Source of the DNA: Callorhinchus milii
Lineage: Eukaryota
Length of the DNA: 64,000 bases
Assembly: GCF_018977255.1 (NCBI RefSeq)
Contig: NW_024704742.1
Span: 29,328,001-29,392,000, forward strand
Reading direction: 5' to 3'
Every line of letters starts with the position of its first letter. The stretch's first letter is position 1. Of this stretch, positions 13,513 through 28,515 are shown piece by piece. The notes beneath the pieces were generated by a model, which was not told where the DNA came from, ran no database searches, and worked only from the letters and a program-made list of their open reading frames with translations. The position numbers and the translations under genes were made by a program.

Positions 13513-13629
13513 CAGAGTTCTTGTCATCTCTCAGGATGGTCGGAGAATCCATATGAAGCAGTGCCTCAGCTGCCTCGATGGTCTTGTCTGTGCAGTGTAC
13601 GACATTGCTGCTGTGGACCGATGCTTCCA
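13513..13629 (-). CDS. ELF2: ELF2 shared exon, (V)EASVHSSNVVHCTDKTIEAAEALLHMDSPTILRDDKNS
   Basis: Conserved ELF motif DKTIEAAEALLHM. Acceptor ttcacag, donor G|gtacgt, 117 nt, phase 1 to 1. Confidence 0.96.
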
Positions 13630-16600
13630 CTGTGAAGTTAAGAGCAACAAACAATGAGCAAAGATCCTCCCTGAATTACACAACCTGTTATTTAGATGGA
13701 AATTGGCATTAAAAACCAACTTGGTTATTGTGACTGGTGAGACAATGAAATAGCAACTCCAAAAAGGATCATTCTGTAATCACTCTTGCTGTACAATCTA
13801 TGCTTGAAATATATACCGTATTTGTAAATGTGAATTAATACCACAGCTTGCACTTATTAAGCACCCTTCACGTAGGATAACCTCTAGGAGCTATTTACAA
13901 AGAAGGCATTGGACAGCATAATAATAATAACAATCCTTGCATTTAGTCTAGCACTTTATCACGTCGTTGAGATGTCTCAGCACTTCACAGCATATATTTT
14001 AAAGTGGATTGACTGTGTAAGTTGTGGATGAAACATGCATTTTTATGGGCAAGGAAGCAGAGAGACCACTGGTCACACAGAGAAAGTACGTCACCGGCAA
14101 TATCTTGCACGATCTGCTTTCTGAATATATGTAAGTCTGCCTCCAGCTCACTTGCAGCCAGACAACAAAAGGAAAGAAAACTCGACTTTCAGAGCAACTA
14201 ATCACGTTGAAACATTTCAAACCATTTCATAAAGCACAATCATCATGTGTAGTGATAGTGACTATTTTGTACAGGGGAAATGGAGCGCCCACATTATAGC
14301 CACGAACCCAACGGAACCAGCAATTAAGTGAATGACTAATTAATATGGAGGATTACGGCTAAGAGACCGAGAGAAACTGCCATGTCTTTTCAAATGTCCT
14401 GGAATTTGTATCCTTGACCTTGGTTTAAGTGTCATCCAAAAGATGGCACCTCGGACAATGTATCGTTCCCCAAACACTGCACAAAAATGTCAGCCTTAGA
14501 GTAGATTATGAGCTCAAAGTTCCTACGTTGGGCTTGAACCTACCAACCTTCTGACCCAGAGGCAAGAGTCTTACCAACTGAGTCAAGCTGATACCCAGGA
14601 GGTTGAGTTAGTGGATCTCAGTCAAAGGAGCAGTAGATTTGCTATATATTGCCCTCGTCATCTGAACTGGGGAGGTGAAAATCAACCACATTCCTCGCTA
14701 TCTAGTGCCCCATCTAGTAGAAAATCAGGACAAGATATCAATGAAGGCACAATTGGGTTTGACGATGATGATCCTCACAGTTCAATCGCCTGCCAACATC
14801 CAGGATCACACGTGATAAATGGCTTCTTACGAGCAGTACCAAAGAGAGTCTGGCTCCCGCCAGCACAAATTCAGCACCTCCTCAAGAGAAATAGCTTTCA
14901 AAGAATACGATGCACCTTTCCTTTTAAATAACCCAAATTAAAATATAGTGGTTCTCTAAGAAAGAGAAGTGGTTGAACCTCAAATCTTGTGCAACTTCCT
15001 TTTGAATGTAATTGGGAGTAATTCGGTTATATAACGGTTTGCAAGTATGCAACCCTTACATAAGGCTGCGGAGAAAAAAAAAACATTGAACAAACTTAAA
15101 AAGCCGCACGCTTTTTGGACCAATTGTAAAGCAGCATTTCACCGAATCTTTGCATAAACAGTGCATGTGAACAATCATTGATGTTTGGTCCCGTTTCCTG
15201 CCAAATCAGAATTGGACTAGATCCAGCGGTGACCACACCGCACTACACAGGAAACCACAATATTTCACACTTGGAACTGGAAGGTCCAAAAAGTACAGCT
15301 TCACCACAGTACTGCACAAGTCACATACTCCAAACAAAATAATTCAAGGGCGCAGCTGAACTGCTTCTCTCTGCCAGACTGTTACAGACAAACTGATGAT
15401 TTATTTGCTCTGGCTATTTTGATGCATATTAACCCAGCATCCAAACACAACACAAACCTTGCAAGATGAACTCACTATTGAAAAGGCAATTTAGATTTGA
15501 GACAAAAGGGTCCTGCGGAATCATGACAAATCTGAATGCCCACCCCTCCTGTAAACGTTTTAGCCGCATTTTCCTTCCACTGAGAATCGTCAACTCAGCT
15601 CAGCTGGTAGAACGCTCACTTCTGAGCCAGAAGGCTGTGGGTTCAAGCCCCAGCGAGGAATTTGAACTCAGAGTCCAGGCTGGCAGTCTAAAGTATTAGG
15701 GAAGTGTGTAATTGTCGGAGATGTCATCCTTTAGAAGACACATTCACTTAAGGTCCCACCTACCTTTTCAAGAGCATTAAATGTCCCATGATACAGTTTG
15801 AAAAAAGAAGCATATTTCTCCCAGAGCCCTGGCCAACAATCCTCCAGCTCAGTGGTAGCCAAACCATGGACTGCGAGCCAGAAGTGGCCAACAGGGCCAT
15901 TAAGAAGTGGCCCGCCGAACATTCGCACTAGTCGAGGTGAATCCATTTTAAATCAATGTTTTGTTTCGAAGTGTTTTTTCTTGATTTATGGCATAACATT
16001 TATGGCATAAATCAAGAAATATTCAATCAAAAAAATGTATTTTGTTGGCCGACCAAAAAGGTTGCTAGATGTTCCTCATCATCTTTAACCAAAGCTCATT
16101 TCTCTAGCAAACGAAATGCCTAATAAAAAAATTATACATATACAAGATGGATTTGTACATGTTTGTAAAAATTACTCTGAAGGGGTATTGAGGTATGTTA
16201 AAATTATAAAAAATGTTAACTCCTAAAAAGCAACTATCCAATTTGTGGTAATCCATGCAGGTCAGACCGTTCCTTTAAACTTCCAACACCCATGCGTACA
16301 CAGAGCTTACGTGCACAAATACATTTTAAAATGGATGCTCGGAGGAAGAAAATACACAAATTATAGTTGCTACACATACAGCCCTCATATCCAGTCTCCA
16401 TCCTGCTTCTCATCAAAGTGGCAGGAATGAAATGCAGAGTTTAATTGCTACATGTACACAAAATGTAAATTGCAGACACATCCAGCAGCTTCCCCAACTC
16501 CACTCTACCACCGAACCTAATATTTAACAAAAGATATACTATATTTACTATTTCAAAAATAGGAAGCATAGGAAAAGAGAAGAAAAATACTTTTACAATT

Positions 16601-16927
16601 AGGCTTTTTTACTTCATCTTGCACACAGAGGGAGAGGTGAAATTATAGTGTAAGCTGTAGCTTTAAAAAGAAACTGCCGAAAGAATAGCAAACAGACAGA
16701 ATAAGTAGATCAAACATGTCTCAAAAAACAAAATAATGATTCTTTCTTTCAACTGATCAAGAAATGATATTTGCCACATTTGTTTTCCAAATAATTGGAT
16801 GTAGCTGCATAAGGAGAAACTACAAATAATCAAAATTATTCCAAGTAATGCAAACCTACATACAAACTGTCACTCAGCCCTTACAAATTCACATTAATTT
16901 TCAAATATCTCCAATATTGGATATTAC

Positions 16928-17806
16928 CTGAGCCAGTAGAAAAGTGCAGAAATATTTGGGAGAGATTTTGCAGAACTCTTTACAAATCTGTAGATAATCG
17001 AGGAGAAATTTGTTAAATTTTGAGGGAAATTGCGGAGGGTGGTATTGAGATGCATTTTGCTGCTAACCTACAATTTTTCCTCTTTTCTCATTTTCAAAAA
17101 TGCTTCATGCTCAGGAATAAGCTCCTTCAGGTATGTATTACAAAGCTGTGATGGTGTTGTGATAGTCCCTCCCTGTTTCGTGTACTTGCATAGAAACTCT
17201 TGGAAGGCAGGAGCCTTTTCAAGCGGTTTGTCTGCTCTAGTCAAACAAAGTCCAATATGAATTCTTGCCTCTCCATAGGTGGTGCAGTGGCTCTAGAGAA
17301 GCAGGTTGTCAGAGCAACTTGTCTTTGAGGTCCAGATCTACCTAAAAAGGAAAAAATAAAAATGAATCTTCATGATCATTTGTCGCTAGAAATGTTCTGT
17401 CTATTTGATTTTGTTTGCTGTGGTTGTTTTATGTGCTTTTAAAATTCAATCAAAAAGGGAGATTAACTTTTGTAATCATATAAATTAAGATTTTCTTTCA
17501 AAATTAAAGTGAAAGCAAACAATGATACATTTTCATTTAATGTTATATATATCAAAAGTATTTTACCTTCTTTTATTTTCTTTATTGCCACTGCCTTGTG
17601 TTCACGTTTCCGCTTCCGCAAAAATTCACCGGACGTGCGATCGGAGCCGCTCCGGCCACGGTAGTGGCATCGAGCAAACAGCGCGAGGGGCCTGGGGCAC
17701 TGTGGAAAAGTTTGTACCCAAGGAAGCCGGTGTAGCGGGTTTGTAGCGGGCGGCGCCATTGTGGAGGAAAATGCGGTGGTTTGTCCGCACTTTTCTATTG
17801 GCCCAG
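16928..17806 (-). mobile_element. Internally deleted hAT DNA transposon with a CGGBP1-like transposase remnant (copy 1)
   Basis: TIRs CTGAGCCAGTAGAAAAGTGCAGA / TCCGCACTTTTCTATTGGCCCAG (20/23 match). Flanking 8-mers GATATTAC / GATATTAA (7/8, hAT-length TSD). Minus-strand translation QRQVALTTCFSRATAPPMERQEFILDFV, then after a frameshift ADKPLEKAPAFQEFLCKYTKQGGTITTPSQLCNTYL, resembles the CGGBP1 C-terminal half. Confidence 0.8.
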
Positions 17807-18129
17807 GATATTAACGGCCCATATCGCTAGCATTTTCATTTTCATCACAGGTGAGAGGTAGTTAGAAAGCAACTGAGAGAAAGAGAAATTGGTTCCTTAA
17901 GTCAAAGCAGCAAATGAGGGAGAGCCAAACTGTGGAGGTCTCCTGGATCAATTCTGGCAATATCCCTTGATACTCCTCTTCATCATGGCATTGCACCAGA
18001 GTTACACAAGGTATTCAAACTGCTTCAATTTTAACACAGCTTATGTGCAAGATGAGAAAACGATTCTTCTTGCAAAGAGTAATAAGAATCTGAAATGTAC
18101 TACAACATCACCCTTCATGCAATATAATA

Positions 18130-18501
18130 GTCCTGTAGTTTAGTGGTTAAAGCACTCGCCTTGCAAGCAAGCGACCTGGGTTCGATTCCCGACAGGGCGA
18201 AATATTGGGCAAGTGTCCTTACTGCACAGGCCTCTATTTACCTAGTAGTAATTAGGAACACAGTTGTTAGTCGATTGGCGAATCGCTTTTCCGTGAGTAA
18301 TAATTCCTTCNAAAAAAATAATAAATTGGTCACTTTAATTCACAACTGTTTGTGAACAGTGCTGTGCACAACTGCCTGCCATGTTTCGCCCACAAAGTAT
18401 ACAGTCAATTCACTTTACAGTACATTCTGTGAAGCAAGTTAGATGTCTCAAAGACGTGATAAGGCGCTATATGAAATGCAAGGATTATTATTATTATTAT
18501 T
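18130..18501 (+). mobile_element. Full-length SINE, same family, lying between the two hAT copies
   Basis: Head GTCCTGTAGTTTAGTGGTTAAAGCACTCGCC, B box GGTTCGATTCC, tail (TTA)n. Confidence 0.85.
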
Positions 18502-18707
18502 TACGCAGGTCAGCATCTCAGAGCACTTACCTTAGAAACCATAGATGAGGAATCAGATGAAGGATTTAAGATAGAGATAGATACCTGGGCAGTAAAAAGG
18601 ATCCAGAGAAAAGGCGGGATTTTAAAAAAAAGGTTGTATGTCTTTGGTTTCTACTCTTCCTAATTTTCTACACAGAGCGAACTGAATCCTTGCATTTGAT
18701 ATACTGC

Positions 18708-21316
18708 CTGGTCAATAGAAAAATGCGGCTACAACCCCCGTCTGTAACAAACTCGCCATAAATGTAGTTTCTGGCCCGCGGGCCGCTCACGCTGTTTACC
18801 TGATATCACTGTGGGTGGAACCACTCCGGACGCGCATGCACAGTGCGGCGCAAGAGACAAATGGGCTTCACTCGAAGGCCCCGCTGCTGTGATTGTCTGC
18901 GTGTCTCTACGTTAGTGTCTACGTCTGTCCTATATGTGTGTGTGTTTATGAATGTCTCTGTGTGAATGTGTGTCTCTGTCTGTGTATGTATGTATCTTTG
19001 TGTCTACGAGTGTGTATGTGTGTGGCTGTGAGTGTGTCTCACTCTCTGTGTCTCTTTGTGTGTCTCTGAGTGTGTGTCTCTGTGTGTCTGAGTGGGTGGG
19101 TGTGTATCTCTCAACAACAACTTGCACTTATATAGCGCCCTCCACGCAGGGTAGCGTCTAAGAGCGCTTAACAGTGGCGGAGCCTGCCTCCAAGTCGGGG
19201 GGGAAGTGGCTGTAAGCATGGTCAAAGAGGAAGGTCTTCAGGCGGGACTTGAAAAAGGGGAGAGAGGGTCAAGGCGGAGGGATTGAGGAAGAGAGTTCCA
19301 GAATTTTGGAGTGTAGTGGCTGAAAGTGTAACCTCTGATGGTGGAGTGGAGAGTGCAAGGAACAAGCAGGAGGCCGGTGCCAGTTCGAGCAGATGTGACA
19401 TGTGGTGGATTAGGAAGTGAGGAGGTCGGAGAGGTAGTGAGGTGTCAGGGAATTAATGGATTTAAACACAATAGTGAGTAACTTGAAGTCGATCCATTCA
19501 GCGATGGGGAGCCAGTGGAGCCTGGCCAGAACTGGTGAGATGTGGGTACGGAGTTTGGTCCGGGCCAGTATGCGGGCGGCAGAGTTTTGAATGAGTTGCA
19601 TCTTGTGAATGGTAGAGCTGGGAGACCGACCGGCAAAGAGTGCATTGGAGTAATCCAAGCGGGAGGTAATAAACGCATGCGCAAGGGTTTCAGCTGCATT
19701 TGGGATAAGGTACAGTCAGAGGTGGGCAATGTGGCGGAGGTGGAAGAAGGCGGTCCTAGTCAGGGACCCGATGGGGGGGGAGGAAGGACAGTTGGGGATC
19801 AAACCGGACGGCTAGATTGCACATTGATTTGGTGAATCTGAGGGAGAGCCCAGGGAGGTTGAGAAGTTTAGATCCGCAGGAGTGAAGACGTTGACGGGTG
19901 CCAAGGAGTATGGCTTCCATCTTGTCCATATTCAACTGCAGGAAATTTATACTCATCCAGGCCCTGATGTCTGTCAGACAAGCAGATAGAACATCGGTGG
20001 ACCTGGAGTCAATGCTGGAGGAGGCAAAGTAGATTTGTGCGTCATCTGCATACATGTGGAAGTTTACCCCATGTCTGCGGATGATATCGCCCAGAAAGAG
20101 TATATAGGTGAGGAAAAGAAGAGGCCAAGGATGGAGCCGGGGTCACCTGCAGGTGACCGGGCGGAGACGGAAGGAGAAACCATTTGCTGAGATGAAATGG
20201 AGGTGGTTGGTTAAGTAGGACTCGAACCATGCAAGTGCGGTCCCACTAAGGCGGATGAGGGAGGAGAGATGGTGGAGGAGGATGGCATGGTCGACTGTGT
20301 CAAACGCGGCAGAGATCCAGGAGAATGAGGCAGAAGGAGCCCTGGTCACAGATAGAGAGGACGTCATTTGTGACTTTGACAAGCGCCGTCTCTGTGCTGT
20401 GGACAGAGCAAAAACCAAACTGCAGGGGCTCGAGGAGGGAGTGGAGGGAGAGGTGTGACCAAGTTGAGCTGCAACATTGCGATCCAGGACTTTGTCAAGG
20501 AAGGGTAGGTTGGAAATGGTAGGGTGAGAAATTAGAGGGATCGAGGGTGGGTTTTTGAGGATGGGTGTGATAACAACTGTTTTCAAGGGGAGTGGAACAG
20601 AGCCTGAGGAGAGAGACTGATTGACTGTGTTGGCCAGCAGTGGCGAGAGGAGGGGGAGTTGACTGACCAGCAGCTGGGTGGGGAGGGGGTCAAGGCAACA
20701 GGTGGTGAACTTTATACAGGTGATCATGGTTGAGAGGGGGCAAAGGGGTGTAAGGAGGGAGGACGATGCAGTCAAGTGGATGTTTTCAATTTTCTGGGAC
20801 CTCTTTGCACTTGGCGCTTGATGTGACACACACAAATACACACACTCACAGACACAGAGACACCCACACACACTCAGAGACCCAGAGAGAGAGAGAGACA
20901 CACACACACACACACACACACATAGTCAAGAGACACAGACTCTCGGTGTCTGTGAGTACGTGTCTCTCTCTCGGTGTCTGTGAGTATGTGTGTCTCGCTC
21001 TGTGTCTCTGTGTGGTGTCGGCGCTGAGAGGCAGGAGGTGGTGAGCTCCTGTAGCCTCACTGGTGTCGTTCTCCCCCACAAAAAAATGGCAACCCAGTTT
21101 TTGCTAAAGAAGCAATTAATCTTTTTCTGCAAGAATCTAATATTTGTTATTTCCTTCTGTTTAGTTTTTATCAATAAAATTAAAAAATGTAAAATGTACC
21201 TCAATAGCACCAATCAATCCCTGCAAATTTTAGCAAAGCCCTCCGCAATTTCCTAAGAGATTGGCAAAACACTCTGCATTTTGGGCAAAAATGTCCGCAC
21301 TTTTCTATCAGCCCAG
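18708..21316 (+). mobile_element. Second related hAT element (copy 2, opposite orientation) with a C-terminal transposase remnant and nested LINE and microsatellites
   Basis: Ends (c)CTGGTCAATAGAAAAATGCGG and TGTCCGCACTTTTCTATCAGCCCAG match the copy 1 TIRs; shared subterminal GGAAATTGCGGAGGG. Plus-strand fragments VDVFNF / SLHLALDV / GVGAER..VVSS resemble the hAT C-terminal dimerisation region. The element interrupts a SINE. Confidence 0.7.
19112..20765 (-). mobile_element. 5'-truncated L2/CR1-clade LINE with decayed reverse transcriptase ORF2
   Basis: Frameshifted RT motifs [63 protein letters not shown]; 3' tail ending in (TTG)n at 19112. Confidence 0.9.
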
Positions 21317-21635
21317 CTTATCACATCTTCGAGACATTTCAAAGCACCTCACAGAATACACTGTAAAGTTAATTGACTGTATATTTTGTGGGCGAAAGGT
21401 GGCAGCCAATTCCACACAGCAGTGTCCCACAAACAGTCGTGGTTTGAGTGACCCAATTTTTTTTATTCATTTTGAAGGAATTATTACCCCTGGAAAAGCA
21501 ATAAACCAATTGACTAACAACTGAGTTCCTACTTACTGCAAGGTAAACAGAGACGCGTGGAGTAAGGAAACTTGCCCAACGTTTGGCCCTTCCCGGGAAT
21601 TGAACCCAGGTTCTCTCGCTTGTGCTACAGGACTC
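21317..21635 (-). mobile_element. SINE whose 3' tail (18685-18707) is separated from the body by hAT copy 2
   Basis: aatccttgcatttgatatactgc (18685-18707) plus cttatcacatcttcgagac (from 21317) reconstitutes the family consensus aatccttgcatttgatatagcgccttatcacgtcttcgagac. Confidence 0.8.
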
Positions 21636-23005
21636 CAAACAAATTACTATCATATTCAATATTCCAGAGATTCTCACTTTGCTTTGAACAGCCTAATACA
21701 CTTTCTATAATCAGATGGCAACAAGATTCTTTTTAGGAGTTCAATTTTGGCCAGCAAAGAATGTGATGACATTATTTTGATCAAAAGTAGATCTGCCAAG
21801 TGTTTTGTACCTGAATCGTGCCAGGATTGCAGAAAAAGGCATTAGATGTTATCTTAAAATATTGAGCACAAGCAAAAGGCATTAAACTAGCTGCAGATTA
21901 AAATAGGGCTGATGCTGTTTTTATTGACGATAGAAGGTCAAACTAGCTACAAAGCACTATAAATAGACGGTTGTGTAGTTTCAGATAAATCTGGGCTCAG
22001 TGCACGAAGGGTGAGGTTTTAGATTTCATTAACAACATTACATCAGAAGTGTTCTCCCTCTCAAACACACAGACGGACTGGACTCATGCTCTTATTGCAA
22101 TGCCACCTGTTGTAAGTCAAACACAACTTTCACCAAGGTAGTCACTCATGGTTGTTTCCATTTATGGAAATGTGCGAAGCCAAATCATCGGATGGAAACA
22201 GCCGCCCGAATGGATGTGCACAACCCGGGCACAGTCAGTATATCTCTTCCTTACTGAAGGGGAGAGCAGCCAATTCTAACTAAACATTAACCCGCGACAG
22301 GGAAGAAGGGGAGGGCTGAGTATTTCAAAGAGAAGAACGTATTTAAATACAAAACGTGGCTTTGCAGCTTGCCAGAACAGGATGTAGACAAACTTTTTTT
22401 TAAAAAAACTTTTCAATTGATACATATTAATCATACCAACACCACCAAAAAAAAGCTTGTTTTTAGGGAGGATGCCTTTTGTACCGAAAGTGAGCAAACA
22501 GACTACTAGAGATTTCCAATTGCAAATTTATAGTACGTCAATTTCAGCTCCCATTTCTCCGCATTTTTAGGAAAGTTGTAAAGTTAAAGTACACAGAAAT
22601 CTAAGACGTAAAGTAGTGGTCAGGTTGTGCAGGAGCCTTTCGTCTCGGGTCACAGTCCATAACTGAATTGAATGGGTAACTGCCTCAAAATAGGACCTGT
22701 GAAAAGTGTCCAAAAAGTTCATTTGATTGTCAAATACACACACTGGAACCCTGAACCGCAATAACATTGAATTCCATGCAAATGTCTCATTTCAGAGAAA
22801 ACAGAACTCCTTCAAACCATACAATTTTTCACAACCGGTTGTAAAATCAAATGCCACACTTTTCTGTTCTCAAAATGTATTAAGAACACATTAATAAAAT
22901 CTACTACTGTCGATTTTATACAGTGTTTTGGGACACCCTCCCGACGTGAAAGGCGCTTTATGCATGTAATTTTGTACTGTACTGTATTGATAGCTATAAT
23001 AAATA

Positions 23006-23315
23006 ACAATAATCCTTGCATTTGATACAGCACGTTTCACAATTTCAAGACATCTCAAAGCGCTTCACAGAATATACTGTAAAGTTAATTGACCGTGTAT
23101 TTGTGGGCAAAACCCGGCAGCCAATTGCGCACAGCAGTGTCCCACAAACAGTCGTGGAATGAGTGACCAAATTATTATTGTGGGTTTTTTTCTTGAGGGA
23201 TTATTATCAGGCGTGTGGATTAAGGAAATTTCCCAAGGTTTTGCTCTCCCGGGAATCAAACCCAAGTCTCTCACTTGCGAGGCGAGAGCTCTAACCACTG
23301 AGCTACAGGACTCCA
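23006..23315 (-). mobile_element. Full-length SINE, same family
   Basis: Reverse-complemented head at about 23255-23315 and tail at 23006. Confidence 0.85.
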
Positions 23316-24076
23316 CAAGCTGACAATCTCTTTGGATGTATTGTATATGGAACTCCTCCCAAGGATACCAATATACAGTCAATTCACTTCACAGTATATT
23401 CTGTGAAATGCTGAGATGTCTCCCAAGACGTGATAAGGCACTATGCCGAATGCAAGGATTATTATTATTATTATTTGCTTGGCTAAGAATCTCAGCAAAT
23501 GCATACCACATATTCACCAAAGAGGACATGTAACATTTATTACGACTTGCTGGCCAGTTGGGGACAATACAGCGAGATAAATAAATAAACACGTCAGTTG
23601 CACACAGCCTTAAGCCATTTTCGCTATGCACAAGGTGTACAGAAGACATAAAAACCGAGTAGTTTTTCTTCGACGTGTTTGCTTCCTCGGGTACGTTTTC
23701 CAAGCCCGTGCGTGCGATGGGTTTGGAAGCTCGATTTTAAAACCCTGACTTCGCGCGTACGGTACTTACTTGTACATTATACCCGTGGGACGTTAAGATT
23801 ACTTCTGCTCTGAACTAATCAGCTTCGTGGTTGTGCGCTTTTCTTTGTCTCGCTATGCACTTGACCTGGTAGGGAGGGAGGGAGGGAGGGAGGCCATCCG
23901 CTGACAGTCAGCAGCTGAAAACTCTTCAGGAAACCAAACCAAACCACTAAAATCGTACTGGAAGTGAACCATTCGCATTCAGAACAGAAACAATAGAGTG
24001 GCTGCAGCATCTCGATCCCTCTCACGGTCTTTGCTAAACCTACAATTGAACTTTATTTCATGATTGTTTTTTTTTT

Positions 24077-24351
24077 GGGGGGGGTGTGGGGGGGGGTGTG
24101 GGGGGGTGTGTGGGGGGGGGGGGGGGGGTGTTGGGGGGGGGGTGTGGGGGGGGGTGTGGGGGGGGGGGGGGGGTGTGGGTGGGGGGAGCAGACGGGCTGG
24201 GGAATGGGAATCCAGTTTAGCATTTTAATGTGGCCTCGTATCTCGCGTGAAGCGCAGTGCGCGACTCTGCACTGAACCGAAGAGGAGAGAGCAACCATCA
24301 GCAGGTCGGAGGATAGAGAGAGAGAGACAGAGAGAGAGAGAAAGAAAGAGA

Positions 24352-24397
<46 letters not shown>

Positions 24398-24400
24398 AAA
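24077..24400. repeat. G-tract array (GnTGT) at 24077-24186 followed by (GA)n/(GAAA)n microsatellite at about 24312-24400
   Basis: Directly visible. Confidence 0.95.
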
Positions 24401-25962
24401 GAGCAACTGCGGCCCCATTGCACTATTCCCGGGTGCAGCGGCGCTCGCTCCCCGGCTTCCCTCCCCAAAGCCATTCCACCGAGGGAGGGGGGGAGGGGGG
24501 GGGGGGAGCCCCGGGGTAAGCAGGAAGAAGCCTTTGTATCGCCTCCCCCTCCGCGTCTCCTCCCCCTTTCCTCCGCCGCCACCATTCCCGTTATTGCTGC
24601 GTCCCTTTCCCCCCCTCCCCCCTCCCCCCCCCCCCTCCCTCGCTGGTCAGCGGCAGCTCAGGACAGGCCATTCAACTTCCGTGTTTACAGCCCCTCCCCC
24701 TCCCCCTCCCGCTGCCGCTCGCGCTCTCCCCCCACACACACACACACAGACACACACAGAGCATTCCAACCCGGCCCGGGCTCGCGTTCCATTCTCGCTC
24801 TCTCCCCGTCCACCCCCCGCGGGGCTCGCGCGCGCTATCCGGACCGCGTTCCATCGCCCCTCTCCCCCCCCCCCCCTCCCCGGGACCTCACTCAGCCCCA
24901 GTCCCTGTCAATCACCCGCGCGCCGCTTCCGCCAACATCAAACCTGGCGCTGCTGCACGGCACCGGGGCAGTGCCGGGCCGGGCAGGGCAGTGCCAGGCA
25001 GGGCAGTGCCGGGCCGGGCAGGGCAGGGCAGTGCCGTGCAGTGCAGAGCCGCGCCGCTCCGCTCAGCGGAGGGAGGAATTTCTGACTCGAAACGCAAAGC
25101 CACAAGGGCAGGACTCGAGAGAGAGAGAGAGAGAGAGAGCTTTGGGACAGGGCGAGAGAGGAAGAAAAGAGGAGGAGGAGGGAGGAGGGAGGAGATGCTG
25201 AGGGGAGGAGTGGCAAAGAGAGAGTCCCACTACCAATTATTAATTCGTTCGAAATATATTGATACATATATATATATGTGGTTTTTGAACTTAAAAAAAA
25301 TGGGCGCGGTAGCGTTCTTTTATTTACGTGTGAAAAGACTGGGAGGGGGGGGTGTGGGGGGGGGCATTAACGTGCCAAGACGTATGGGAGGGAGGGGGGG
25401 GAGGGGGGAGGGGGGAGGACAAGAAGCCACCAGCGCACTTCCTGGTTCCGCAGCTATTAATGTAAAGTAACGGCGAGCGAAGCCTCACACAGTCACTCAC
25501 ACACACACACACAGAGCAGCAAATCAAACCACACCACACGCTGCCCCTCTCTCTCTCCCTCTCTCCCTCCTCTCTCTCTCTCACACACGGTACTCTGCAT
25601 ACAGTAGTTTCCTTTTATTTTGAAGCCAACCATCTTCAACGTGCAACGAAACACACAACTTGATTTCCTTCCTTCCTTTCTCTTTCCTCTCCTCCCCCCC
25701 ACACACACACACACACACAAAGCAGGAAGAGAGCCCCTCTCGCCATGCAGGTTGCCAACAAGGTGCTCACTTCCTGATCTCTCTTCCCCTTTCCCTTCTT
25801 TCCTTACAGTAACGGGACTGGAGCAGACAGTTGCATTCCCCACCTCCCGTCTCTCCACACGGCGGCGGGGGGGGGGTGGGGGCTGACTCTCTGGGGGCTG
25901 TGTGTGTGGTGGGGGGGGGGAGTGGGGGCTTCGCAAAAGTTTGTTGGTCTGGCGGGTTTTAC

Positions 25963-26020
25963 CGGCTTGGATGAGGAGGTCCAGTTGGTTTTTCCGACCC
26001 TCGTGAAGTGAAGTCGCCAT
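25963..26020 (-). CDS. ELF2: ELF2 isoform B (NERF-1 type) alternative first coding exon, MATSLHEGRKNQLDLLIQA
   Basis: Resembles human ELF2B N-terminus MATSLHEGPTNQLDLLIRA. Good Kozak context aagATGG, donor G|gtaaaa, 58 nt, phase 1 (compatible with exon 13513-13629), inside a CpG-rich region. Confidence 0.93.
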
Positions 26021-26189
26021 CTTTCTCCGCAAACGGCAGCAGCAGCAGCTTCCCAGAGAGGGGGGGGGGGGGGGGGAGAGCTGATCGTATCACTGCGCAC
26101 CCACAGGAAATCTTCACAACACAACGCACAGCGCCGTATCCGTCCGCAAAAGCCAACACTTGCACCGTGTGTGCACAGAGACCCGAGTT

Positions 26190-26757
26190 ACACACATACA
26201 CAGACACACATACACACACAGACATACACACACATACACACAGACATACACACACAGACATACACACAGACATACACACACAGACATACACACATACACA
26301 GACATACACATACACACACAGACATACACACACATACACACACACACAGACACACAGACATAAATACACACACACCCACACATACACACACACACATACA
26401 TACACACACATACACACATACATACACACACATACATACACACACACACAGACATACACACACATACACACAGACATAAATACACACACATACATACACA
26501 CACAGACACACACACATACACACAGACACACATACACACACATACACACAGACATACACACACACCAACACACATACATACACACCCACACACATATACA
26601 CACATACATACACACACACACCCACACACATACATACACACACCCACACGCATACATACACAGACATGCATACATACACACATACATACATACACACATA
26701 CACATACGCACACACAGGCAAACACATACATACATACAGACATGCATACACACACGC
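26190..26757. repeat. ~570 bp compound (CA)n/(CATA)/(CAGA) microsatellite
   Basis: Directly visible; it generates the HT/CV-repeat ORFs in the track. Confidence 0.97.
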
Positions 26758-28515
26758 ACTTTCACACAACTCCTCCATGTTTTTCATTCCCTTTCCTATA
26801 AAAAGCTCCACAATCGATCTGATCCCTTGTTTTTTTTTCCTTCCCTTCTCTCTCTCTCTCCCCTCCATCTCTCCTGACTGTAACATTAAACGGAGGAGAG
26901 AGGGGGTCGTTGCTTTGTCCTCTCTCTCTCCCTCTCTCTAATGCCCACAAGAAGATGCACTAAAAGAACAGATCCGACACCAGGAGTCAGACTCCGCGGT
27001 GCAAACAGAGGCGGAGAACACACAGCGCGCGGTTCAGATCTCCGGTTATCGGTGCGGGATCCCCTCCCACAGAAAGTCAGGGGTTCTGTTAACACCAACA
27101 GCCGCGCCTCCGCCTGGTCTGCAGATCAGATCGGATCGGATCGGATCGGGTGCGACGTCCACACGTTGCATTCGGTTTTGCAAAGTTCTCGAAATCGAAG
27201 CGGAGCAAAGACGCTTTTCCAGCTCACGCTGTGTGGGGACGACTAAGGCGACGAGAGAGAGAGAAAAAAAAAGACCCCAACAAATGCAGGAGCTCCAGGA
27301 GTCAACGGGAGTCCTGATATTTGCTGCAGCAACAACAACAACAACAACAACAACAACAAGATTCCATTTATAGAGAGCGCCTTTCAGGTCGGGAGGACGT
27401 CCCGAGGCGCTGAAACTCTCAGGCAATGCGCGGGTGCGGTCTGGATCACTTGAACCGCAGCAGAAGGTCTCACGTTACTCGCAGAAACTGGGATTTTGCA
27501 ACAACATCAAGCGAAAGGGGCTCAGGTCGGGAGTGGCACGAAACCTTCCCGAATGTTTGGTTCGATTCGAAGCATAAAACTAACGACTAAAAGACCCGAA
27601 GGCAGTTTCGTGGTTGGAATGAATGGCGAAGCGGGTCCCAATGCAAACACTTTGGACGGATCGCCAATTTAATTTAAAGGGGCTGTCGTCATTGTGTGAT
27701 GAACACGGCCTGGGATTGTAAAGCTGTCACCATGCCACCAACCAACGGGGCTGCACAAAAACATGTCCTTGCTTGCTTTATTTATTTACTTTCATTTATT
27801 TATTCATTTGACAATTACTTCGGCTTCTGTCGTCATTTCGGCCAACTCGGTGGCAAGTAACCCGATGCCTAATGCGGAAATAATAAAACGATTTTTTGGT
27901 CGTGTCTCAGGACATTAATATCCAGGAATCGCTTTTATCAGATTACCCGTGTTAATCAGAGCTTCCTCGCCGTGTGCACAGTAAGGGATACTGCACACTG
28001 GTAAGACACATCAGCATATAACGTGTAAGAGAGCAATGCCTAACACACACCATCGGGGAACAGAAGTTGACGCAAGACGATATCTTAATTTTCTTTCAAC
28101 ACAGCCATTCGTGCATATGTTTGCATAACGTCTATCCCGTTAGCCATTTAACCCAATAGTTATGCAGACGAGGCCATGTCTGGCCGTAATTGAAATTGGA
28201 TGATCAAAAGACTTGAAAGGATACTTCAAAACTGTCTTTTTGTTTAAAAAAAGTGCTCAAGTTCCATTTTCTTCTATTGAACCGCCCCACTCAAAACTCA
28301 ATTAGTACAGCTCAAGAGAACTGGGACTGGAGATTTTGCACAGGGAAGATTTTACAACATTCATGTTAGGAAATATACCACACAAAGGCACTATTTAAAA
28401 AAAACTGCAACCACAGAAAATGAGGGCAAGCAACCACTTGCAGTTATAATCTCAATGAGTTCTGAAAAAGGTATAAGTTGCTTAAACCTTGAGGTTGTGG
28501 TTTTCTGTGGTCATT

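Follow-up and report, generated by a model that had tools for sequence, protein, structure and literature searches.

Genomic setting of the two elements

The window analysed here, i.e. the whole 64-kb stretch of Callorhinchus milii DNA, harbours a minus-strand gene resembling ELF2 (5100-39000). Its ETS exons lie at ~5.6 and 7.4 kb, with other exons at ~10.5, 13.6 and 38.9 kb; the best match of the ETS exon is ELF2 (E 2.5e-42). An alternative first exon at ~26.0 kb lies beside GC-rich DNA and is surrounded by tandem arrays of the G-rich, AGAA, GGGCA and CA types (24077-26768). One intron, 13630-25960 on the minus strand with an approximate upper limit, holds two related transposon copies. The exons that flank it, at ~13513-13629, 26.0 kb and 38.9 kb, were placed using short motifs. 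Positions 15977-16019 form an imperfect palindrome of 43 bp, in which a 14-bp unit is repeated in tandem.

Copy 1 (16928-17806, minus strand) is 879 bp long. Copy 2 (18708-21316, plus strand) is a non-autonomous element of 2609 bp with terminal inverted repeats at both ends; it has no detectable coding sequence, splits a SINE that its joined flanks rebuild, and contains a LINE, without which its length is 896 bp. Its strand was assigned from the homology of its ends to those of copy 1. A separate tRNA-derived SINE lies between the copies (18129-18500, plus strand). The head of the latter is tRNA-like (Rfam tRNA, 50 bits at 18129-18200), and many copies of this SINE are present in the window.

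Copy 1 and the CGGBP/hAT-19 lineage

Copy 1 is an internally deleted element of the CGGBP/hAT-19 type. A frameshifted exon at 17071-17341 (minus strand) codes for an N-terminal DNA-binding region with 79% identity to two C. milii proteins, and it adjoins a GT-AG intron (17342-17566) whose splice sites were read from the sequence. The copy was detected by a full-length HMM of its relatives with an iE of 9.5e-13. As the preliminary description had proposed, what copy 1 keeps of its hAT transposase is thus the N-terminal region, and we regard this piece as a genuine one of the CGGBP/hAT-19 type on the strength of these similarities. The element is bordered by an 8-bp target-site duplication, GATATTAC on the left (16920-16927) and GATATTAA on the right (17807-17814), identical at 7/8 positions (chance 0.0007). 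The terminal repeat can be extended by one base (CCTG...CAGG), which would yield a perfect 6-bp duplication as an alternative to the 7/8 one. An imperfect palindrome (16899-16926) lies in the left flank beside the target site.

A search with one of the C. milii proteins returned 206 relatives at E <= 0.001, 150 of which were listed. Full-length relatives join a CGGBP-type N-terminal region to hAT catalytic domains, and one was named CGGBP1-like by its source. Pfam was run on 22 of 152 proteins: 10 of these 22 passed the Dimer_Tnp_hAT cut-off, and most match DUF659. A profile of 12 relatives also matches the transposase of Hermes, a distant lineage (E 2e-12). None of 446 candidates proved to be a longer relative of a mid-region fragment from C. 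milii.

The CGGBP-type domain has been tied to hAT-19 elements (Yellan, Yang and Hughes 2021, PMC8097297), and Frith 2022 (PMC9004415) agrees. Copy 1 resembles the CGGBP-like hAT transposons, mainly of the Repbase hAT-19 subclass (hAT-19_Crp, hAT-13_LCh), in that it encodes a CGGBP-type N-terminal region, which is invisible to Pfam as reported for those elements (PMC8097297), and in that its relatives carry DUF659 and Dimer_Tnp_hAT. Copy 2, unlike these transposons, has no detectable coding sequence, and its link to them is the homology of its ends to those of copy 1. Our literature search found no published termini or duplication length for hAT-19 and, among the papers listed, no description of a CGGBP/hAT-19 family in C. 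milii, although chimaera hAT-19 families may figure in Table S1 of PMC8097297.

Copy 2 shares its ends with copy 1

A terminal-repeat pattern allowing up to three mismatches matched three ends in the window, at 16928 (plus strand), 17786-17806 (minus strand) and 21296-21316 (minus strand), and none in 100 shuffles. At 18708 lies the fourth end, the 5' repeat of copy 2 (18708-18728), which has the same sequence type but is one base shorter than the other three. Both ends of copy 2 thus carry the short, 22-bp terminal inverted repeats of copy 1. All four ends read CTG...CAG (16928-16930, 17804-17806, 18708-18710 and 21314-21316), and GCGG/CCGC words are present in the subterminal regions of both copies, a further point in common with the CGGBP-like hAT transposons.

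The homology extends beyond the repeats. The 3' subterminal region of copy 2 with its 3' terminal inverted repeat (21191-21316) is 68% identical to the 3' end of copy 1 (90/133 alignment columns), and a 5' subterminal block (18774-18833), which the preliminary description had missed, is identical at 44/63 columns; neither alignment score was reached by any of 500 shuffles. The interiors of the two copies do not align, the score obtained being reached by 52/500 shuffles. Since the copies align both at the 3' end and in the 5' block, their divergent orientation is fixed. They are separated by 901 bp and span 4389 bp in all. The preliminary description had reported a second element of copy 1's terminal-repeat type in opposite orientation some 900 bp away, and this stands; both 3' motifs that it quoted are found in the two copies. 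It had considered that an alignment limited to ~20 bp at the termini would speak against its reading, but blocks of 133 and 63 columns align. One of its motifs, GGAAATTGCGGAGGG, is at different positions of copies 1 and 2 in the collinear alignment, which points to a repeated subterminal unit. Thus, these comparisons support copy 2 being a second element of copy 1's lineage, placed head-to-head with it and with homologous ends. An AATAAA motif at 21173-21178 (plus strand) may be a polyadenylation signal of the parent element.

We searched for further copies of the copy 2 subfamily and found none in the 64-kb window or in viral or metagenome contigs; the exact terminal-repeat patterns likewise had no matches in either set of contigs. 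Among 24 sequencing runs listed, three contained half of the words or more, and none of those listed was an RNA run.

Insertion of copy 2 into a SINE and the missing duplication

Copy 2 interrupts a tRNA-derived SINE on the minus strand. The body of the SINE (21317-21622) follows copy 2 and is 79% identical over 307 columns to positions 18164-18463 of the SINE between the copies, and its 3' end (18685-18707) forms the left flank. When the flanks were joined, 21 of 24 SINE matches spanned the junction, all of them at most 1 nt from collinear. Copy 2 is thus a single insertion, younger than the SINE. Two fused half-elements can be ruled out, as removal of the whole span restores the SINE.

No 8-bp target-site duplication was found around copy 2, its flanks reading TATACTGC on the left and CTTATCAC on the right. 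Neither this absence nor the interrupted SINE was part of the preliminary description. The 8 bases on the right (21317-21324, plus strand) are a candidate target site with no second copy on the left flank. The patterns nTnnnnAn and GTnnnnAC are those of Hermes and hobo targets (PMC10368747, PMC3276498). For this one site, CTTATCAC fits nTnnnnAn, as do 8% of the 8-mers of the window, and three of the four positions of GTnnnnAC (4.5%); the 8-mer of the left flank fits one of the four.

Two models account for the junctions. In the first, CTTATCAC was duplicated and one gap of 9 nt explains both anomalies, the absent duplicate and the short 5' repeat (alignment score 56). In the second there was no duplication, and a 1-nt gap suffices, with a plain alignment score of 60, slightly above that of the deletion model. 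We favour the former, in which the left duplicate would have been lost together with a base of the 5' repeat through one 9-nt deletion. Our reasons are the duplication around copy 1 and the agreement of the right 8-mer with nTnnnnAn and with three positions in four of GTnnnnAC, as against one in four for the left 8-mer. Such a deletion could have been ordinary decay or the repair of a one-ended cut.

Taken at face value, the second model would mean that integration is blunt in the copy 2 subfamily, of the CGGBP/hAT-19 type and with CTG...CAG ends, and produces no target-site duplication; the split SINE would be the footprint of this process. All 21 spanning matches recover the SINE across the joined flanks without an 8-nt surplus, and nothing more than a slip of 1 nt within a run of G is needed. 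Nevertheless, we consider blunt integration quite improbable: it rests on one site, copy 1 shares these ends and yet is flanked by a duplication (7/8), and the right 8-mer fits the hAT target pattern (3/4) whereas the left one does not (1/4). Furthermore, hobo produced 8-bp duplications at 1196/1198 sites (PMC3276498), and blunt integration would be unlike the hAT elements described there and in PMC10368747. If the missing duplication were a family trait, it would suggest that strand transfer by this hAT-type enzyme follows a different geometry.

A LINE best explains the first putative C-terminal block

According to the preliminary description, copy 2 keeps the C-terminal part of the transposase in two blocks, the first of which reads VDVFNF/SLHLALDV. 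This region belongs to a 5'-truncated LINE of 1713 bp inserted in copy 2 (19112-20824, minus strand), with a reverse-transcriptase remnant and a short CAA tail. Its RVT_1 match (E 1.7e-6, 28.3 bits) is just under the Pfam cut-off of 29.6. The insert presumably belongs to the L2/CR1 group, and its reverse-transcriptase frame and short-repeat 3' tail are as expected of such a LINE. Relatives of the frame were identified in 339 of 596 candidate metagenome stretches, and 80 were kept; the contigs concerned (L001-L080) presumably represent eukaryotic DNA in those samples. None of 22 candidates in viral contigs was a relative of the frame, and no solved relative of it was found. Further LINE copies are present in the window, none of which reaches the region of 20776.

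The VDVFNF peptide is the antisense of KIENIH in the LINE frame (20776-20793, minus strand). It belongs to the same stop-free frame as the motifs on the reverse-transcriptase side, and this frame (20143-20925, minus strand) encloses positions 20776-20824. Thirty of the 80 long LINE frames extend far enough upstream for comparison, representing 26 distinct sequences. A K[IV]..[IL] motif precedes the C.LDP.PT motif in 10 of these 26 and F..KI..I in 5. When the peptide SQKIENIHLTA, which contains the antisense of VDVFNF, was placed ungapped on this LINE motif block, only 10 of 5000 background pieces scored as high. By contrast, as a D..FW...LA..LA motif, the sense reading VDVFNF/SLHLALDV was equalled on the two hAT blocks by 670/3000 and 2153/3000 background pieces, and this candidate was rejected. 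Against the complete LINE HMM, the 30-residue upstream piece alone fell short of significance (E 0.09), and matching the antisense of VDVFNF to the LINE motif requires a deletion of ~15 residues in the frame; indeed, the KI..I and C.LDP motifs of the frame (20740-20800, minus strand) are ~15 residues closer together than in its relatives. The block is best read as LINE rather than as a hAT C-terminus. The quoted letters are present in the DNA, but VDVFNF, SLHLALDV and GVGAER..FFCKN are in three different plus-strand frames.

Low-complexity DNA surrounds the LINE. A degenerate TG/TC microsatellite (18930-19110) lies on one side, and a CA block followed by a TG block (20825-21010) on the other, so that the order along the plus strand is TG, LINE, CA (20825-20925) and TG (20940-21010). 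Segment 20843-20911 recurs at 20946-21014 as an inverted repeat (77%). This strand switch could reflect a small inversion at the insertion of the LINE or low-complexity chance.

The second putative C-terminal block

The second block is the GVGAER..FFCKN stretch (21014-21136, plus strand). We found no significant similarity between this stretch and hAT C-termini, and no hAT transposase sequence with a C-terminal dimerisation region and catalytic Glu in copy 2. None of its 15 ORFs has a hAT match in Pfam. With 150 proteins as tblastn queries, the best E-value for copy 2 was 0.004, on the opposite strand, as against 2e-28 for copy 1, and of the 80 matches in the region of copy 2, the best 30 included none from a C-terminus to 21014-21136. 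An HMM of the C-termini of 12 relatives ranked the claimed frame 405 and 1122 of 1822. A frameshift-tolerant profile gave a score of 13.3, reached by 43/300 shuffles and 60/318 window tiles, and with 17 C-termini and three gap settings 103, 24 and 36 of 250 tiles scored at least as high as the stretch. The best of these tests corresponds to p of about 0.1, with a C-terminal profile that includes no known chondrichthyan C-terminus. A word-indexed search gave no candidate for the copy 2 peptide and the Atlas no usable match, both of which are weak negatives; in a search of viral contigs with a single hAT protein, none of eight candidates was confirmed.

The preliminary description had named a missing Dimer_Tnp_hAT match as an outcome that would count against its claim, and this was the result both with Pfam and with lineage-specific profiles. 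Thus, the proposal that copy 2 keeps the complementary C-terminus is not supported, the stretch being no better than background against Pfam and the C-termini of relatives, and neither is the notion that the two copies together outline the parent transposase, as copy 2 has no detectable piece of it.

A related possibility is that 21014-21136 represents the heavily decayed last ~40 codons of the transposase, from the catalytic Glu to the stop, the first block still being LINE. The stretch occupies the place expected of a C-terminus, as AATAAA and then the 3' subterminal block come shortly after it; its V.AER resembles the VDAERSFS motif of the relatives, and with the best gap setting its score was reached by 24 of 250 tiles. 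We nevertheless regard this possibility as unlikely. No test was significant, and the ER motif block and the last-15 block were reached by 378/3000 and 726/3000 background pieces, respectively. The spacing between Glu and Asn is 36 residues vs 31 in the relatives, which calls for several indels although the decay of the copy is no more than ~9%. The latter limit comes from the interrupted SINE, which equals the family majority at 130/143 sites (~9% off) and thereby caps the decay since the insertion of copy 2 near 9%. In simulations at 10% decay, all 66 remnants outscored the observed stretch, but the power of the test drops with age, as 17% and 42% of simulated remnants scored equally low at 20% and 30% decay, respectively. 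The master element of copy 2 could have decayed before copy 2 inserted.

Relationship between the two copies

The preliminary description suggested that the divergent pair might reflect local hopping, or that the outer repeats might define a 4.4-kb composite unit. These are the only two such elements in 64 kb, 901 bp apart, and closely linked inverted Ds pairs arise by short-range transposition (PMC3429523). However, the ends of our copies are only 68-70% identical and their interiors are unrelated, and copy 1 has its own target-site duplication. This ~30% divergence of the ends, with no interior alignment, is set against an interrupted SINE that is only ~9% from its family majority, which makes a local hop unlikely. 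The copies are most likely derived from different subfamilies, given their distance and unrelated interiors.

As for a composite, the outer 8-mers share 5/8 letters, but the right one was discarded as part of a composite duplication since it belongs to the interrupted SINE. A composite (macro)transposon would have one 5' and one 3' outer end and a shared outer duplication; here both outer ends are 3' ends, and no such duplication was found. Right-end/right-end Hermes had no activity (PMC10368747), and macrotransposons come from same-orientation pairs (PMC3429523). Furthermore, the right outer flank continues a pre-existing SINE whose tail lies inside the span, and thus a 4.4-kb unit did not insert here. 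Taken together, it is highly improbable that one element hopped locally to give the pair, or that the pair once moved as a composite. The closeness of the two copies, with none else in the window, may reflect chance or a favoured region and is not accounted for by independent insertion alone.

Comparison with Ds, Hermes and hobo

Ds-type non-autonomous hAT elements and hAT MITEs are short, with terminal repeats, distinct left and right subterminal regions and no transposase. Copy 2 is similar to the Ds elements of the Ac/Ds system in its short length, terminal repeats, distinct subterminal regions and lack of transposase. It also has a close inverted neighbour, as Ds elements do (PMC3429523), but Ds local-hop pairs are identical copies, whereas copies 1 and 2 are ~30% diverged. 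Copy 2 further differs from Ds in having no 8-bp duplication. As regards Hermes and hobo, the target 8-mers of copies 1 and 2 each match three of the four positions of GTnnnnAC, but the ends of both copies read CTG...CAG, whereas most hAT elements start with CAG or TAG. Copy 2 has the terminal repeats of a hAT relative but neither a duplication nor coding sequence, so we infer that it is hAT-like through copy 1 and do not count it as a verified hAT insertion.

A proposed history of the locus

Copy 2 probably belongs to a sister subfamily of the CGGBP/hAT-19-type transposon represented by copy 1. As a Ds-like element without genes it would have been mobilised in trans, and its insertion would have been independent of that of copy 1. 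The SINE was present first, as the rebuilt junction shows. An element of ~0.9 kb then inserted in a single event, presumably at CTTATCAC and through a transposase from elsewhere that binds the shared terminal and subterminal sequences, and the 8 bases of CTTATCAC would have been duplicated. A later 9-nt deletion would have taken the left duplicate with one base of the 5' repeat. The 5'-truncated LINE, on the opposite strand, would have entered the internal microsatellite; its nesting is apparent from the sequence, and its timing is probably later. Both elements would since have decayed in the ELF2-like intron.

Vertebrate introns commonly hold decayed non-autonomous elements in which retroelements are nested, and copies 1 and 2 are ordinary transposon relics in an intron of the ELF2-like gene. 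The link between hAT-19 and CGGBP1 has already been published (PMC8097297). The two copies are of no use for outlining the parent transposase, full-length relatives of which are already in protein collections. Nevertheless, the locus gives a clean relative order of a SINE, then a DNA transposon and, most likely, then a LINE. It also indicates that at least two end-related subfamilies were once active in the C. milii genome.
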